Positions 3,195 through 58,543 of a stretch of 64,000 nucleotides of DNA are shown here, piece after piece. The DNA is taken from NCBI GenBank assembly GCA_050949345.1, contig JBMNFN010000001.1, positions 706,931-770,930 of the forward strand. Direction: 5' to 3'. The first letter of the stretch is position 1. Each line of letters begins with the position of its first letter. This DNA comes from Anaerolineae bacterium (GTDB taxonomy: Bacteria; Chloroflexota; Anaerolineae; UBA1429). Under the pieces are notes generated by a model that did no database searches, was not told the DNA's origin, and saw nothing but the letters and a program-made list of their open reading frames with translations. The translations under genes were made by a program, and so were the position numbers.

Positions 3195-3310
3195 CGCGCC
3201 GCGATGAGGGGAGACAACGCTGCTGATGCAGGTCGACCAGTCTCTTGAGCGCTACGATTGTGACCATTTCACCCAACCCGCCGGGCTGGGTTGCGCCTGA
3301 TGGGAGTATT

Positions 3311-5581
3311 ATGTCCACCATTAAGAACGGGCGCCAGCAGGTGGTCGCCTTTGCCGGTACGCAGGGGCTTGCCATGCTGGTGTCAGCTTACCGCGATGCC
3401 CCCTGGGACATCACCGGGGTTGTACCGCCTGCCAATGCGGGCGCGGCTTTTGCACAGTTGCATTCGACCATCGGCGCCAGCGCCGACGAAATAGTGATCC
3501 CTACGCTGGACCGTGTAGAGGTTTGCGCCGAACTCTCTGATGGGGAACATCTGCTCGGAGAAAGCGCCATCACCGAGGGCGCCAACGGCGCTGTGATCAA
3601 GCGGGTCTTTTTGGTCTCGGACAGCCCCGGTCGGCCCACCAGCGATTTTCGCCCTACCCCCGAGGTGCTGCAGGCCCTCGAGTCGGCGGATGCCATCGTG
3701 ATCGGTCCGGGGTCCCTGTTCACCAACCTGATCCCCTCCCTGTTGATCAAAGAGATCAACTCGGCGGTGCGGGCCAGTTCCGCGCGCAAGATCTTTATCT
3801 GCAACCTGATGACGCAGCCCAATCAGACCGAAGGTTTTTCCGTGGCGGACCATGTGCGCACCATCCAGCAGCACTGCAGCCTGCGCTTTGACTATGTGCT
3901 GGCGCACCATGGGGGCGCCATCAGCCCCGAGGTGCTGCAGCGCTATCACGAGAGCGCCGCCGAGCTGGTGGTTCCCCAGCTGGTAGTCAACGATGGCTCG
4001 CAAGTGGCCATCTTTCCCGACTCTCCGCAAGAAATGGTGCTGGTGGAGGGCGCCATCCTGATGTTGCGGGACCTCGCCATGGAGGTGTTGCAGAACGACC
4101 CGGTCACCGGCGAGCCGCACCTGGTGGTCCGGCATGATCCCGTCAAGCTGGGTGACGCGTTGCGCTCGGTGCTGCACGACTATGCCCTGGAGAAAAAACT
4201 CTCGGTCAGCCGGGCCATCTTTCGCGAGTATGACATTCGCGGCATCGTGGGCGCCGAGCTCACCAACTCGGCACTGGAGGCCATGGGCCGCGCCTTTGGC
4301 ACCTATATCCTGCGACGTACCGGTCGCGGACAGATCGTCATCGGACACGACGCACGCCCGAGCTCTCTGCCTTTCAGCCAGGCCGCCATTCGGGGCCTGC
4401 TGGATGCGGGATGCGAGGTGCTGGACATTGGCCAGGTGCCGACGCCACTGACCTCCTTTGCGGTCAACCATTTTTGGGTGGATGGTGCCATTCAGGTGAC
4501 CGCCAGCCACAACCCCGCTGAATTCAACGGGCTCAAGCTGCAGGTGGGCATGGAGCCCCTGGCTGGCGCCGAGCTGCAAAAGGTAGAGCGCCTGATCGCC
4601 AGTGGCGCCTTTACCAGCGGGCGAGGCCAGCATCTGGTACGCGACGTAGAGTATCCCTACCTGAACTGCCTCCTGCACAAGGTGAGCCTTTCGCGTCCTT
4701 TTAAAGTGGCGGTGGACGCCGGCCATGGCGTCAACGGCCCGCTGGCCCTGCGCCTCTTGCGCGAACTGGGTTGCCAGGTGGTGCCGCTGTACTGCGAACC
4801 CGATGGCACCTTTCCCGCGCACTCGCCCGATCCGGCAGAGGCCGAGAACCTGCGTGACCTCTCCCAGGCGGTTGTCGCACACGGTTGTGATGTAGGCATT
4901 GCCTTTGACGGAGATGGCGATCGTATCGGCATCGTAGATGAGCGGGGCGCCATCCTGCCGCCAGACGTCTATCTGCTGCTCTTTGCCCGTGAGGCGCTGC
5001 GCGCCGGCCCTGGCAAAGCGGTGTTCGAGGTGCGCTGTTCCGAGATGCTCTTTGACGGCGTACAAAAGTACGGGGGCATCCCTATCATGTCACGCTGCGG
5101 CAATACCTCCATCCTGCCGCGCATGCACCAGGAGCGAGCGGTCATCGGCGGCGAGCTCAGCGGCCATATCTTTTTCAATGACCCGCCCATCGAGTTTGAC
5201 GATGGCTTGTTCGCTGCAGCGCGACTGCTGGAGTATCTGGACCGGTCTGGCATCCCCTTGAGCCAAATGGTGACTCAGCTGCTGGAAGGGCTGCCGCGCT
5301 ATATCAGCTCGCCCGAGATCCGCATCGATTGCCCCGACTATATGAAGGATCAGGTAGTTGAGATGGTGCGCGATGCCTATGCGCACCAATACCGGGTGAT
5401 CGACATCGACGGCGCCCGCATCTACTTTGACGACCGGGATTGGGCCCTGATACGGGCCTCTAATACGTCGCCCAAGCTCTCGCTGCGTTTCGAGGCGCTG
5501 GACCAGGTCAAGATGGAGGCGATGAAGGCCTCCATGCACACCGAGCTGATACGGCACCTGCCCGAGGTCAGGCCGTTTTAG
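3311..5581 (+). CDS. Fusion protein: YvcK/GlmR-like (UPF0052, CofD-like) N-terminal domain plus phosphohexomutase (PMM/PGM/GlmM family) C-terminal domain
   Basis: N-terminal motifs AIVIGPGSLFTNLIPSLL and ICNLMTQPNQTEGFSVADH are typical of YvcK. C-terminal TASHNPAEFNGLK (phosphoserine loop), GIAFDGDGDR (Mg loop) and GELSGH (sugar loop) match the alpha-D-phosphohexomutase superfamily. GGGAG RBS sits 5 nt before the ATG at 3311. A longer TTG-initiated ORF begins at 3245. Confidence 0.8.
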   Translation: MSTIKNGRQQVVAFAGTQGLAMLVSAYRDAPWDITGVVPPANAGAAFAQLHSTIGASADEIVIPTLDRVEVCAELSDGEHLLGESAITEGANGAVIKRVFLVSDSPGRPTSDFRPTPEVLQALESADAIVIGPGSLFTNLIPSLLIKEINSAVRASSARKIFICNLMTQPNQTEGFSVADHVRTIQQHCSLRFDYVLAHHGGAISPEVLQRYHESAAELVVPQLVVNDGSQVAIFPDSPQEMVLVEGAILMLRDLAMEVLQNDPVTGEPHLVVRHDPVKLGDALRSVLHDYALEKKLSVSRAIFREYDIRGIVGAELTNSALEAMGRAFGTYILRRTGRGQIVIGHDARPSSLPFSQAAIRGLLDAGCEVLDIGQVPTPLTSFAVNHFWVDGAIQVTASHNPAEFNGLKLQVGMEPLAGAELQKVERLIASGAFTSGRGQHLVRDVEYPYLNCLLHKVSLSRPFKVAVDAGHGVNGPLALRLLRELGCQVVPLYCEPDGTFPAHSPDPAEAENLRDLSQAVVAHGCDVGIAFDGDGDRIGIVDERGAILPPDVYLLLFAREALRAGPGKAVFEVRCSEMLFDGVQKYGGIPIMSRCGNTSILPRMHQERAVIGGELSGHIFFNDPPIEFDDGLFAAARLLEYLDRSGIPLSQMVTQLLEGLPRYISSPEIRIDCPDYMKDQVVEMVRDAYAHQYRVIDIDGARIYFDDRDWALIRASNTSPKLSLRFEALDQVKMEAMKASMHTELIRHLPEVRPF

Positions 5582-16542: not shown

Positions 16543-17232
16543 ATGGAGCAATTGAAAAAGTTCTGGCCGCTGCTCCTCGGTGCGGCGGCTCTGGTCGCCT
16601 TGGCGCTCTGGATACGAACCTCTGGCGTGCTGGATCGTTTTGGAGACTGGAACGCTCTGGCCACCATGACCGAAGAAGTGGGCGGTTGGATGATCGTCTT
16701 TTTGCTGGCGGCTCAGGTAGTGCAGGTGCTGGTGCCGGTGATCCCCAGCCAGCTGTTGGGCATGGCGGCGGGATTCCTGTATGGCATCGTGGGGGGCACC
16801 TTTGTCTCCTGGTTTGGGACGGCGCTGGGGGGGATTCTAGCTATCGCCCTGGCCCGTCGGTACGGCCGTCCCTTTGTGGAAAAGCACGCCAGCCCTGAAA
16901 CGATAGACGAGATCGATGCCATCGCGCGACGCTTTGGCTCGTGGGGCTTTTTCCTGGTGGCACTGATCCCCTTTATGCCCACTGACATCGGGTGCTTTGT
17001 GGCGGGGCTCACCGCGCTGCGCATGCGCTCCACCATCATCCCCATCTCTCTGGGCAGGGTCCCCGGGCTGCTGGTGCTGAGTTATCTGGGCGCCACCTCT
17101 AAAGAGATCAGCCTGGAGGCGATGGTTCTCATCAGCGCCTTTACGCTCATCGTTGCCGGGATCCTGTGGCACTATCGGGAGCGTCTCGAAGGGCTGGGGC
17201 ACCGCGTGATGCAGCGGCTCAAGCTGTACTAG
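16543..17232 (+). CDS. DedA/TVP38/SNARE-associated family membrane protein
   Basis: Multi-TM product with DedA signature regions (VIPSQLLGMAAGFLYG, LIPFMPTDIGCFVAG). Confidence 0.8.
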   Translation: MEQLKKFWPLLLGAAALVALALWIRTSGVLDRFGDWNALATMTEEVGGWMIVFLLAAQVVQVLVPVIPSQLLGMAAGFLYGIVGGTFVSWFGTALGGILAIALARRYGRPFVEKHASPETIDEIDAIARRFGSWGFFLVALIPFMPTDIGCFVAGLTALRMRSTIIPISLGRVPGLLVLSYLGATSKEISLEAMVLISAFTLIVAGILWHYRERLEGLGHRVMQRLKLY

Positions 17233-18513
17233 AGTCGCTGCCCGTACCCGAACCACCCCGGCGGGCAGCGTTGGCCTGCCTGATGGCGAGCCTGGCCTCA
17301 CGGGACGCCAGCTCCATCATGGCCCGGTGCGGATCGGCATCGGCGATCCAGCCAGAGGCAAGCGCTCGGACCGCACTCTGTACCACCCCCTGCGCCTGTG
17401 CATAGGATCTGAGATGATGCTCATAGTACTTGGCCAGCTCCACATAGGGATACAGCACGCCATCCTGCAGTGCGTCCTGCCACACCGCTGCCGCCTCTGA
17501 CAGGCGGCCCTGCCTCTTGAGCAGCGCCCCCAGCCGCTGGCGCGCCTCGCGCTGCACCAGCGGATCCGCGCTGGAGGCGGCCCGGCGGTAGGCCTCCAGT
17601 GCCTCCTCAGCCGCGGCGTCAGCCTCGTGCAGGCGGCCTACCGCCAGCGGATCGTGGTGGGCACCGCCGCCCCGGGAGCGCTGAGGATCGAGGCTGCCAT
17701 CAGCGTGCACCAGCAGAGTTACCATACTCAAAACGTCCAGTTTGTTGTGATAGAAAATGCCCTCCATCTCCCGGGGATCGCCGGTCATCTGGTACTGCCG
17801 ATAGATGTCGGGGATCAGGTAGCCGGGAATGTCCAGGCTGTCCCGTACCACACCCAGCACGCCAGTCTCCAATGCGCTGAGCGCACAGGAAGGTGAAAAG
17901 CGTCGCCAGAGGCGCCGGGCCACCGGCAGCAGATCCAGATGAGGCACACGGTACAACGGCGTTCGCGCATAGCCGTTCAGCACATAACGGGTTTCCAGCA
18001 GGGGCAGGTCAAAAGTGCGCCCGTTAAAGGTCACCACACCCGTGGTGGCTGCCAGGTCGTGCTCTAACAGCTCCAGCAAGAGTGCCTCGTCACCATAGTC
18101 AGGGGCCAGGTACTGTCGCACCTGGATGCCCTGCGCCTCGCGCCGGGCGGTACCCACCATGAAGCAAAAGGTGCCCGGTCCTCGCCCAAGGCCGGTGGTT
18201 TCGGTATCCAGGAAGAGCGCCCCGCGGACGTCAAAGGGCTCGGGCGGTTGAAAGAGTACGCTGGCCCACCGTGTCGCGTCGACCTGCTCCAGCTCGACCA
18301 AGGCGTGCTGGCCGTGGTGGTCGCTCCAGGTGCGGTGTGCCTCGGCCACAAACACGCGCGCCTCGCCCCGCTCGACCCAGGACCCATCAACAAGATCTTC
18401 CAGAGGCGGATACCGCCGGGAATCCCTCGATTCCGATCCTGCAGAGCTCTGTCCACCCAGTATGCGGGCGATACGATCCAAGAGGTCCAAGCGTCCCCCC
18501 TGTAGAACGACGG

Positions 18514-18517
<4 letters not shown>
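17219..18517 (-). CDS. MrfB/YprB-like RNase H-fold 3-prime-5-prime exonuclease with C-terminal TPR domain
   Basis: DnaQ-like Exo I motif ALFLDTETTGL. C-terminal TPR-like helical repeats. The TTG start overlaps the helicase stop (cTTGAcc), so translation is coupled. The longer ORF in the track (to 18595) overlaps the helicase by 82 nt and is unlikely. Confidence 0.75.
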
Positions 18518-23204
<4,687 letters not shown>

Positions 23205-23807
23205 CTATTCCTGCTTGAGCATAAAGTCCTCGGCAGCCCAGCCCGAGGTACCCACCTCGTCCTGAACCTGCCACCAGGTAAAGCCACTGGCCTCTTTGGG
23301 ACCACCGATGATCTCGACGATCTTGCCCTCTTCCAGCAGCTTGACCACGGGGTGCTCCGTGCCTGCCTCGGCGCGCAGTCGCAGACCTGCCATGTCAGTG
23401 CAGCAAACAGCTGCCCTGTCGTTGATGGCCAGGGGCGTGCGCGGCGTGTTCGCTTCGGCCTGCTGAGCCACTGCCGTCTCGGTTGCGGCGAGATCCACCT
23501 GAGGCGCACCCTCGCCGGCCCCAGGAGTGGTGGGCGGCAGCGTCGGCAGCACAGTAGTGGCGGTTGGAGCAAAGGCATCCAAGGTGGCCTGCTCGGTGGG
23601 GCCCTGCGTGGGCTGCTCGATGACACCTACCGGCCGTGTGGCGGTTACAGTGGCCTGAGCCGTCTGCTCTGCCGGAGGCGAGAACAGCGCCCACCACAGC
23701 CCTACCACCACAAACACCACCAAAGCGGGTACAGCAACATACATCCAGCGGGGCCAGGCCTCCTGCACGGAGCGCGTACCACCGGTCCGATCATTTCTCA
23801 CGGGCAT
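23205..23807 (-). CDS. Membrane-anchored protein with C-terminal bacterial SH3 (SH3b) domain
   Basis: N-terminal TM helix (VAVPALVVFVVVGLWWALF). Low-complexity T/P/A linker. C-terminal SH3_3-like segment (KIVEIIGGPKEASGFTWWQVQDEVGTSGWAAEDFM). Confidence 0.55.
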   Translation of the reverse strand: MPVRNDRTGGTRSVQEAWPRWMYVAVPALVVFVVVGLWWALFSPPAEQTAQATVTATRPVGVIEQPTQGPTEQATLDAFAPTATTVLPTLPPTTPGAGEGAPQVDLAATETAVAQQAEANTPRTPLAINDRAAVCCTDMAGLRLRAEAGTEHPVVKLLEEGKIVEIIGGPKEASGFTWWQVQDEVGTSGWAAEDFMLKQE

Positions 23808-23935
23808 GGACCCCTCCTTTTTTCGGACTGCTCGATCGCAACCATTATAGTAGCGCCCCGGACCTTGTCAACGGTTGCAGGGCGTCAGCCAGCGACCACC
23901 TGCCGACAGATCGGTGGACGCGCCCAAAGGGCCCT

Positions 23936-24793
23936 TCACGATGTAGAGCCGGTGTGTGCACGCACATAGTCTGGCAATCCGCGAATCAGTTCGGCCTGCG
24001 CGTCGCTGAGGGATCCGTAAGCAGTCAGATCTGCCTGCATCTCTCCCTGCTCGATCAGCCAGGCAATCACTTCTTTTGCACGGGAGGATGCCAGCCCCTT
24101 GTGCTCCAGATAGCGTTCTGCCCAGATCACCAGGTCGTTGGCCCAGGTGACCCCCACAGAGGCCGGCTCGGCCACGCTGCGTCCGGCTGGAGTGCCCTGC
24201 TGCTGGGCGCGGGCAGCGCCCGCCCCGCTGAGTGGCGCAGTCGCCCGGCTGCGAGCGGTGCCGCGAGGACGCCGCTCCGCGACGTTGGCTGTCTCAAGCG
24301 AGGCTGAGGCTGACTCGGTCTGTCGCCGACGCACCCGTACGCGGCCCTGCCCATCGATGTACGGCTCGTCGATGAACTCGCGCCGCCGCGTATCGTATGA
24401 GCACCATACCGTCTCCAGCCAGTAAAGGTAGCGCCCTACCCCAAAGTGTACGGCGGCCCGCTTGAGCGCATCGGACACGGCACTCTTCCACGGGTCCGCC
24501 TGTTCCCGCTCAGAGAGGAGGTGTTCGCCGACATCCTCGCGGGTCACTCCACACACCGTCAGGCTGGATTTGACCACCAAACGATCGCCCTGCACGCCCA
24601 GCGACTCCCAGCGAAAGGACCAGTCGCCCCCAACCACCTGGTCGAGGCGCTCTGAAACCACACGGGGATCCACATAGGCAACCGCCAGGGCGCGACCTCC
24701 CTCCGAAACCACCTGCGGCTTCCAGCGCACCTGATCCTCTCGAAAGGGCTCTGCCAGCTTCCTGAGCTTTTCCTGATCCAGTATCTCGCCCAT
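23936..24793 (-). CDS. Rad52/Rad22-family single-strand annealing protein (Sak/DdrA-like)
   Basis: Rad52_Rad22 core: QVRWKPQ, LAVAYVDPRVVSERLDQVVGGDWSF, SAVSDALKRAAVHFGVGRYLY. AGGAG RBS sits 7 nt before the ATG at 24793. The longer ORF in the track (to 25042) would run through the promoter. Confidence 0.7.
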   Translation of the reverse strand: MGEILDQEKLRKLAEPFREDQVRWKPQVVSEGGRALAVAYVDPRVVSERLDQVVGGDWSFRWESLGVQGDRLVVKSSLTVCGVTREDVGEHLLSEREQADPWKSAVSDALKRAAVHFGVGRYLYWLETVWCSYDTRRREFIDEPYIDGQGRVRVRRRQTESASASLETANVAERRPRGTARSRATAPLSGAGAARAQQQGTPAGRSVAEPASVGVTWANDLVIWAERYLEHKGLASSRAKEVIAWLIEQGEMQADLTAYGSLSDAQAELIRGLPDYVRAHTGSTS

Positions 24794-24832
24794 GTTGCTC
24801 CTTGTCTCTGCATTGTGGGCTGCCGATGCTGC

Positions 24833-24861
24833 ATCGTAGAACATATGTTCTATTCGGTCAA
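24833..24861 (-). promoter_or_regulatory. Promoter (TTGACC-17-TACGAT) with a Cheo-type LexA box GAACATATGTTC in its spacer
   Basis: On the minus strand: TTGACC (24861-24856), 17-nt spacer containing the perfect palindrome AGAACATATGTTCT (24837-24852), then TACGAT (24838-24833). It lies 40-68 nt upstream of the Rad52-like start. Confidence 0.55.
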
Positions 24862-24897: not shown

Positions 24898-25665
24898 CTA
24901 CAGAGAGGCGCGCCAACCTCCATCCACGTGGATCGTGCGACCGGTGACATAGGAGGAGGCATCCGAGGCCAGGAACACGGCCGCGCCAATCAGCTCTGCG
25001 GGGTCTCCCCACCGTCCGAGAGGGATGTTCCCCTTGACCCACTTGTCAAAGGCAGGATCTTCCGCCAGCGGACGGGTCATGTCGGTGAGAAAATAGCCCG
25101 GAGCGATCGAGTTGACCCTTATCCCACGGGGACCCCACTCGGTGGCCATGGCCCGGGTAAGTGCATCCAGCCCGCCCTTGGAGGCGATATAGTTGGCGAT
25201 AGAGGGCCGGGCGGCCTCCACATTCAGCGAGATGATGTTGATGATGCAACCTCGCCCGCGCTCGATCATCCCTCGGGCTACCGCAGTGCTTACGGTAAAG
25301 GCGGAGGTGAGATTGGTCTCCAGCACGGCCTGCCAGTCTTCCAGCCGCATCTCAAGCAGCGGCGCTCGCCGTTGGATGCCCGCGTTGTTGACCAGGATAT
25401 CGATGGGCCCTTGCTCGACCTCGATGCGGGCCACGGCATCGTTCACCTGCTGCACATCGGTGACATCAAAGGGATAGCCAGAGAGCTCAAAGCCCTCCGC
25501 TCGCAGCGAGGCTACCGCAGGCGCAACGCTCTGCTCGCGGGTGCCATTGAGCACCAACTGGGCGCCATAGGTGGCCAGGCCACGGGCGAGTGCGTAACCA
25601 AGTCCACGGCTGGATCCTGTCACCAGGGCACGCCTGCCGGAAAGGTCAAAGAGATGAGCGGCCAT
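24898..25665 (-). CDS. Short-chain dehydrogenase/reductase (gluconate 5-dehydrogenase/3-oxoacyl-ACP reductase-like)
   Basis: TGSSRGLG cofactor motif, NNAG, catalytic YxxxK (YIASK), PG motif. Confidence 0.85.
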   Translation of the reverse strand: MAAHLFDLSGRRALVTGSSRGLGYALARGLATYGAQLVLNGTREQSVAPAVASLRAEGFELSGYPFDVTDVQQVNDAVARIEVEQGPIDILVNNAGIQRRAPLLEMRLEDWQAVLETNLTSAFTVSTAVARGMIERGRGCIINIISLNVEAARPSIANYIASKGGLDALTRAMATEWGPRGIRVNSIAPGYFLTDMTRPLAEDPAFDKWVKGNIPLGRWGDPAELIGAAVFLASDASSYVTGRTIHVDGGWRASL

Positions 25666-25719
25666 GTATTCCTCCCGGCGCCGGAGCAACGCGTTTCAGG
25701 CGCCAACAAGTAGCCTGGT

Positions 25720-56296: not shown

Positions 56297-56300
<4 letters not shown>
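55800..56300 (-). CDS. Hypothetical membrane-anchored protein (possibly DUF4446 family)
   Basis: N-terminal TM helix, then a soluble domain. Sits between rarA-fusion and bactofilin with 4-nt overlap to the former. Confidence 0.45.

Positions 56301-58543
<2,243 letters not shown>

Follow-up and report, generated by a model that had tools for sequence, protein, structure and literature searches.

A chromosomal Rad52/Rad22-family gene of Anaerolineales with a conserved LexA-type palindrome in its promoter and a C-terminal domain shared with phage proteins

A gene encoding a 285-amino-acid Rad52/Rad22-family protein was analysed in a 64,000-nucleotide stretch of DNA from an Anaerolineae bacterium of the phylum Chloroflexota (GenBank assembly GCA_050949345.1, contig JBMNFN010000001.1, positions 706,931 to 770,930), referred to below as the window. 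The gene carries inside its own promoter a palindrome of the Cheo or LexA-box type, GAAC-N4-GTTC, and the whole is probably best explained as a domesticated phage-type Rad52-family protein placed under a damage operator, most likely that of LexA. The parts of this arrangement are ordinary and their combination appears to be new: a design resembling that of DdrA in Deinococcus would have originated separately in Chloroflexi, with a different C-terminal domain and likely a different repressor. The starting point was an earlier reading of the letters and open reading frames made without database searches (hereafter the sequence-only reading). Every coordinate it gave was right, and the positions of the open reading frame, of the promoter and of the palindrome were all confirmed. 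It had missed the second, C-terminal conserved domain of the protein as well as the phage identity of the nearest two-domain relatives.

The product is a chromosomal Rad52/Rad22-family protein. Residues 11-130 match the Pfam family PF04098 (Rad52_Rad22) with 45 bits (E 1.4e-11), the curated cut-off being 20.3 bits, and the annealing-protein family PHROG 1097 is matched at E 6e-27. An identical protein (P0001), which belongs to the anaerobic-digester metagenome-assembled genome (MAG) GCA_012728955.1 labelled Anaerolineae, is named 'Rad52/Rad22 family DNA repair protein' by NCBI; score and name both agree with the family originally proposed. The list of open reading frames contained a longer frame extending to 25042. 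The start at 24793 was preferred because the orthologues begin with the same MG(E/D)xLD N-terminus at this ATG in the alignment. The sequence-only reading had also suggested a profile comparison with Rad52, and a profile built from 69 homologues did match yeast Rad52 (8g3g) at E 6e-5. The motif KSAVSDALKRAAVHFG, invariant across the family, pairs in the profile alignment with KKSAVTDALKRSLRGFG of the yeast protein, KxAVSDALKR..FG here being aligned to KKSAVTDALKR..FG, and the 285-residue protein contains the complete single-stranded DNA (ssDNA) groove motif K-x-A-V-[ST]-D-[AG]-L-K-R ... F-G. The K/R pair of this motif binds DNA in human RAD52. Homology to the N-terminal domain of eukaryotic Rad52 (yeast 8g3g, human 1kn0/1h2i) is therefore detectable and includes the K..SDALKR..FG groove motif, but it is very distant: the Rad51- and RPA-binding C-terminal half of the eukaryotic protein is absent here and the genomic context is bacterial.

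The AlphaFold2 (AF2) model of the protein displays two confident regions separated by a linker. The N-terminal domain shows the beta sheet and long helix of the Rad52-type fold, with predicted local distance difference test (pLDDT) values mostly between 94 and 98 over residues 11-150 and of 89 for residues 91-100. Foldseek retrieved Rad52/59/22 and Sak3 models from a viral library (best E 5e-12); the full model compared with the PDB gave no Rad52 match, and what ranked first there was a chain of phage Gp77 (E 0.02). The linker has pLDDT values of 37-60 at residues 161-210, and both its sequence and its length differ between orthologues. The C-terminal domain is modelled with a pLDDT above 90, is common to the phage homologues P0038, P0041 and P0050, and keeps W217, W224, L256, L262, A265 and Q266 invariant in the alignment. 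It is presumed to bind a partner.

The 104-nt gap between the stop codon of the upstream short-chain dehydrogenase (SDR) gene at 24898 and the ATG of the Rad52-type gene holds the -35 hexamer, the spacer with the operator and the -10 hexamer. The promoter, TTGACC-17-TACGAT, displays 9 of 12 consensus matches in the promoter scan and ends 40 nt before the ATG. The palindrome AGAACATATGTTCT has no mismatch to GAAC-N4-GTTC and is the sole exact site of this type in the window, where no other credible site with up to two mismatches was found. The sequence-only reading had placed it exactly in the 17-nt spacer; it takes up the greater part of this spacer and extends over the first base of the -10 hexamer. 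Such a position would let a bound repressor block the promoter.

Conservation of this arrangement was assessed in orthologues collected by a protein-pattern scan with one genome per species, a procedure in which the upstream DNA played no part. Eight full-length orthologues with 58-66% identity were obtained from other Anaerolineales/Chloroflexota MAGs (L001-L008). GAAC-N4-GTTC lies between a TTGAC -35 and a TATAMT-type -10 hexamer in all eight loci, 61-72 nt upstream of the ATG, and each time it is the only such sequence within the 5-20 kb of the locus. When the nine upstream regions are aligned, the invariant columns are confined to the -35, both arms of the box, the start of the -10, the ribosome-binding site and the ATG. 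The arms GAAC and GTTC are unchanged in 9/9 regions and show no compensatory changes, the N4 centre varies (ATAT, ATTA, ATTC, GGAT or ATTT) and the flanks have diverged. Fixed arms, a variable centre and the lack of compensatory changes point to a protein-binding operator rather than to an RNA hairpin or to chance. The Cheo-type operator proposed earlier is thus upheld, with the addition that it is conserved in every orthologue examined. Because the operator-in-promoter arrangement has been kept throughout, damage-inducible control of the gene is very likely.

The identity of the box points to LexA. GAAC-N4-GTTC is the established LexA box of Firmicutes and Actinobacteria (PMC3323433, PMC9578287). 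The Gram-positive-type SOS regulon known from B. subtilis, S. aureus and M. tuberculosis has the operator CGAAC-N4-GTTCG, which has the same core and also lies over the promoter (PMC3323433; PMC9578287). Among Chloroflexi, Dehalococcoides is counted with the same type. The literature searches turned up no LexA regulon described as including a Rad52-family gene, and nothing published that connects Rad52/DdrA-like genes with LexA or with Chloroflexi. In 2002, Fernandez de Henestrosa and colleagues reportedly described GAAC-N4-GTTC as the LexA box of a Chloroflexi member, Dehalococcoides, too. The SOS regulon of Anaerolineae is, to our knowledge, uncharacterised.

In order to find other genes with the same design, metagenomes were scanned with the pattern TTGAC-N6/7-GAAC-N4-GTTCTATA, which returned 80 loci. 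In various bacteria, the pattern precedes eight dinB-type polymerases, one lexA and one rarA-like gene (L071). Fifteen of the 80 loci encode members of a single family of predicted membrane proteins of about 230-250 amino acids, all named members of which are Anaerolineales. Two more members (L176 and L177), chosen by protein identity alone, also carry the box, and it is the sole one in 20 kb. This family has more than 7000 homologues and no Pfam match; its 5' design is TTGACA-N6-AGAAC-N4-GTTCTAT, with two tandem boxes in L123, and lexA is not adjacent at its loci. These membrane proteins are candidates for SOS induction and, by analogy with YneA or ChiZ, might inhibit cell division. Since at least two unrelated conserved Anaerolineales genes sit behind the operator, it behaves as a regulon element. 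We infer LexA as the binder of AGAACATATGTTCT from the identity of the motif and from the genes that share the same design elsewhere.

The origin of the gene is indicated by its C-terminal domain. Outside Anaerolineales, this domain was found only in P0038, P0041 and P0050 (35-38% identity), all of which are encoded in phage genomes. Genes for DnaB, SSB, terminase and MT-A70 are found around them, and their upstream regions lack a LexA-type box. With such box-less phage genes as the closest homologues that share its C-terminal domain, the gene is most plausibly a phage annealing protein that has been domesticated. In a rough neighbour-joining distance tree of the N-terminal domains, the chromosomal Anaerolineales proteins form one monophyletic group, set off by a long stem. 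Phage Rad52-type single-strand annealing proteins (SSAPs), such as Sak of lactococcal phage ul36 and other PHROG 1097 relatives, have the same fold and motif, and the three phage proteins named above possess both the N-terminal and the three-helix C-terminal domain. These phage genes sit in replication/recombination modules without a LexA-type box, whereas the gene described here stands alone in a housekeeping neighbourhood, under an operator of its own. The statement of the sequence-only reading that no phage genes flank this copy holds across the entire 64 kb. The window is ordinary chromosome, with genes for RNase PH, YbeY, LigA, peptidoglycan enzymes, glycosyltransferases, HMG-CoA reductase and an MgsA/RarA homologue. 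The immediate flanks are SDR, amidohydrolase, LysM, HD, RNase PH, SH3 and LigA genes rather than a phage recombination module, and the order RNase PH-HD-LysM-(amidohydrolase)-SDR-Rad52 is conserved at Anaerolineales loci. At two loci of the phage relatives, L173 (3932-5096) and L174 (280-1444), the two-domain Rad52-type gene is directly followed by an SSB gene, and a small LexA_DNA_bind-like protein is encoded two genes on. This gene order hints that the phage-shared C-terminal domain may work with SSB.

Several observations weigh against the proposed explanation. The probability of a chance palindrome in the window is not small, as at least one exact GAAC-N4-GTTC occurred in 25 of 100 shuffles; the operator is taken to be beyond chance because of its conservation in orthologues and not from window statistics. 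The -10 hexamer TACGAT is weaker than its counterparts in the orthologues. The window and all fetched loci were compared by tblastn with LexA of E. coli and B. subtilis and with RecA of E. coli, and neither the window nor any Anaerolineales locus retrieved contains a lexA, recA or uvrA gene; the DNA searched therefore does not tie the motif to LexA in Anaerolineales. The sole lexA obtained with the pattern scan (L062) belongs to Syntrophales/Thermodesulfobacteriota, not to Anaerolineales. No relative of known function could be detected for the C-terminal domain: it gave no Pfam match, no PDB profile match and, as a separate confident model, no Foldseek match, and phmmer against 1.8 billion representatives returned its own family and three marginal matches only. 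Finally, annealing is not safely deduced from family membership since DdrA showed none in vitro (PMC515370).

The alternative that survives best leaves the regulation unchanged and concerns the activity: the protein may cap 3' ssDNA ends and protect them from exonucleases until RecA-dependent repair takes place, as DdrA does, with no annealing. This is a serious possibility, although not the one we favour. DdrA (DR_0423) of Deinococcus radiodurans is likewise a chromosomal, non-phage Rad52/Rad22-domain protein. Of the chromosomal relatives it is the only one to have been characterised, and in the N-terminal domain it ranks with the closest of them (41-51% identity); it binds 3' ssDNA ends, blocks exonuclease I and showed no annealing in vitro (PMC515370, PMC6300522). 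No partner exonuclease gene is adjacent to the gene described here, unlike in phage recombination modules. The two systems would also share the same derepression logic after damage, ddrA being a member of the DdrO/IrrE regulon that is damage-induced via the radiation/desiccation response motif (RDRM), a repressor palindrome that overlaps the promoter there as here (PMC6300522). The regulators differ, with RDRM and DdrO-IrrE in Deinococcus and a Cheo-type (LexA-type) box here: the RDRM sequence TTCTGTCTTGACCGTAA does not occur at this Rad52-type gene and is present upstream of most Deinococcus ddrA loci. The proteins differ as well. DdrA has about 200 residues, compared with 285 and an Arg-rich linker here, and hhalign shows no relation between the two C-terminal domains (probability 0.3%). 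Orthology is not indicated either, since in the neighbour-joining tree the Anaerolineales clade is neither nested in nor sister to DdrA, each of the two clades being nearer to other, partly phage, sequences. The nearest two-domain relatives are phage SSAPs, one of them next to SSB, for which annealing is expected, and the authors of the negative DdrA assay flagged its possible dependence on conditions (PMC515370). The single-strand annealing pathway named in the sequence-only reading is accordingly kept here as an assumption drawn from the family.

Two features of the Deinococcus loci were recorded in passing. At most ddrA loci (L016-L036), TTCTGTCTTGACCGTAA lies about 64 nt upstream of the start; the -35 TTGACC is made up by its central part, and TTCTGTTATAxACT comes next at the -10. 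Some genomes have a second ddrA-like copy (L019-L021, L026, L030 and L035), which is devoid of the RDRM and abuts an upstream gene.

A second alternative holds that GAAC-N4-GTTC is read in this lineage by another repressor, such as a lineage-specific helix-turn-helix regulator, and that the gene lies outside the SOS regulon. No lexA promoter was found in the Anaerolineales DNA searched, and the ddrA-type genes of Deinococcus are controlled by a non-LexA repressor (PMC6300522). We nevertheless regard this reading as unlikely: the arms of the box are identical to the LexA consensus of neighbouring phyla, in other bacteria the same design stands before dinB (eight times), before lexA and before a rarA-like gene, and the same type of box occurs at chromosomal Rad52-family genes of other phyla (L010, L012-L015 and L179). 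The latter genes, from Armatimonadota and Actinomycetota, carry GAAC/AAAC-N4-GTTY directly before the -10; they end in a different C-terminal domain, a zinc ribbon (CxxC...CPxC), and belong to another clade of the N-domain tree. The zinc-ribbon clade as a whole (L009-L015 and L179, 5001-5678) comprises Armatimonadota, Actinomycetota and unassigned MAGs or metagenome contigs, and its tail reads C..C..K.LTKGQ...FG..LCP.CQ. One member (L178) is located in an integrase-bearing element or prophage and has no palindrome.

It is very improbable that the gene is the remnant of a decayed prophage without host function, its palindrome being a leftover phage operator or a product of chance. The Rad52 family is mostly phage-borne, as the PHROG matches and phage contexts illustrate, but the 64 kb contain no phage genes and the same housekeeping synteny is found in nine genomes, with proteins that are 58-66% identical overall and well conserved in both the N- and C-terminal domains. 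In addition, the operator is invariant amid diverged intergenic flanks and the phage copies lack it. The idea that the palindrome is the terminator of the upstream SDR gene, 47 nt past whose stop codon it could form a 5-bp hairpin, is hardly credible, since no T-run follows, the terminator scan makes no call there, the arms are invariant without compensatory changes and exactly framed by the -35 and -10 hexamers, and the palindrome is kept in L003, where tblastn shows no SDR upstream.

The domesticated phage-type protein under a damage operator could operate as follows. An ancestral Anaerolineales lineage would have taken over a phage single-strand annealing protein and put it under a DNA-damage operator. 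In the undamaged cell, a repressor dimer, most likely LexA, would occupy AGAACATATGTTCT and cover most of the spacer, thereby excluding RNA polymerase. Upon damage, the RecA filament would trigger self-cleavage of LexA, the promoter would fire and the protein would accumulate. The protein, which is probably ring-forming, would use its conserved groove with the SDALKR motif to bind ssDNA tails at breaks or gaps and would then protect 3' ends, anneal complementary strands, or both, the three-helix C-terminal domain recruiting a host partner. The analysis establishes the family of the protein, the layout of promoter and operator, the strict retention of the operator, the chromosomal setting of the gene and the phage ancestry of its two-domain architecture; in this scheme, we infer damage induction, the balance between annealing and end protection, and the C-terminal partner.

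The coordinates of the gene, its regulatory elements, its neighbours and the membrane-protein family are collected in Table 1.

Table 1. Features of the Rad52-type gene and its surroundings (positions in the window) and loci of the membrane-protein family (locus identifiers, with positions within the locus in brackets).
Feature	Position	Strand	Evidence or remark
Coding sequence, 285-residue Rad52/Rad22-family protein	23936-24793	-	ATG at 24793, stop codon 23936-23938; translation, PF04098, PHROG 1097
N-terminal Rad52-type ssDNA-binding domain (residues 1-150)	24344-24793	-	Profile, AF2, Foldseek; includes the SDALKRAAVHFG motif, residues 107-118
Arg-rich low-confidence linker (about residues 151-215; first ~10 residues ordered)	24149-24343	-	AF2 and alignment
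Conserved three-helix C-terminal domain (about residues 216-285)	23939-24148	-	Alignment, AF2
-35 hexamer TTGACC	24856-24861	-	Promoter scan; TTGAC invariant in 9/9 aligned upstream regions
Palindromic operator AGAACATATGTTCT, Cheo / LexA-box type GAAC-N4-GTTC	24838-24851	.	Motif scan
-10 hexamer TACGAT	24833-24838	-	Promoter scan; TATACT, TATAAT or TATCAT in orthologues
Ribosome-binding site AAGGAG, 4 nt 5' of the ATG	24798-24803	-	AGG invariant in alignment
SDR, upstream neighbour	24898-25689	-	Pfam; directly upstream in 7/8 loci (tblastn), absent in L003
Sigma-70-type promoter TTGACA-16-TATAAT	23844-23871	-	12/12 matches; for the SH3_3 gene, possibly ligA-mrfA-mrfB
SH3_3 protein, 200 residues	23205-23807	-	Pfam
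NAD-dependent ligase LigA	21054-23147	-	Pfam
MrfA-like DEAD/MZB helicase with HNH match (residues 677-732)	18514-21057	-	Pfam
MrfB-like RNase_H_2 exonuclease	17219-18595	-	Pfam
Membrane-protein family loci, pattern scan	L066, L067, L069, L079, L082, L090, L093, L094, L099, L109, L111, L117 (377-1114), L120, L123, L128		
Membrane-protein family loci, fetched by protein	L176 (10001-10711), L177 (10001-10714)		

The downstream neighbours (17219-23807, minus strand) are not part of the Rad52 unit. The sequence-only reading had located the gene next to a ligase-helicase-exonuclease operon; this adjacency is real in the window and syntenic in the closest relatives (L001-L004), but L005-L008 have DUF3108/YhfC genes downstream and no sign of co-regulation was seen. 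The window scan found no LexA-type box at the ligA-mrfA-mrfB cluster. As the terminator scan detected no terminator after the Rad52-type gene, read-through into SH3-ligA-mrfA-mrfB is possible. Functional coupling to ligA-mrfA-mrfB as a conserved feature was considered and rejected in view of the adjacency limited to L001-L004, the lack of a second box and the separate consensus promoter. That promoter, a perfect TTGACA-16-TATAAT before the SH3_3 gene, stands in a genome of 64% G+C. The ligA, MrfA-like and MrfB-like genes follow one another in this order with overlapping or nearly overlapping ends, an unusual link between the essential NAD-ligase and a helicase/exonuclease pair of the mitomycin-repair type; all three genes keep their synteny in L002-L004.

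Other parts of the window drew attention on their own account. The MgsA/RarA-type AAA+ protein (56297-58543, minus strand, 748 residues) has some 300 extra C-terminal residues with a weak Cons_hypoth95 methyltransferase-like match, and its gene, unlike the rarA-like gene in L071, has no LexA-type box upstream. A single 778-residue open reading frame (3245-5581, plus strand) joins a CofD-like 2-phospho-L-lactate transferase domain to a complete phosphoglucomutase/phosphomannomutase of four domains. The segment 37168-45598 contains open reading frames without Pfam match, with a third-position G+C of 0.59-0.67 against about 0.75 elsewhere; its neighbours encode a sugar epimerase and glycosyltransferases, and it may represent an island for surface polysaccharide gained by horizontal transfer.

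Bacterial double-strand-break repair is usually seen as centred on RecA, with Rad52-type proteins regarded as phage tools and DdrA as a curiosity of Deinococcus. The Anaerolineales gene represents a second independent lineage in which a chromosomal Rad52-type gene is stably inherited behind a damage-type operator, and the zinc-ribbon genes hint at a third. A tentative generalisation, which we put forward with some reserve, is that phage Rad52-type proteins have been captured independently in several phyla and wired each time into the damage regulon of the host, through LexA-type boxes in Anaerolineales and in the zinc-ribbon group of Armatimonadota and Actinomycetota, and through RDRM and DdrO in Deinococcus. 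If this is true, DdrA would be one case of a widespread and overlooked SOS-inducible function of ssDNA end protection or annealing that complements RecA. The C-terminal domain, being common to the phage relatives, is a candidate interface with a host partner and as such would be relevant for recombineering tools. If the operator is that of LexA, a Rad52-family protein would join an SOS regulon and would offer a natural comparison for end protection versus annealing by DdrA-like proteins. Anaerolineae are abundant in digesters and sediments, and the operator together with its two target families would then provide a first anchor for their SOS network.

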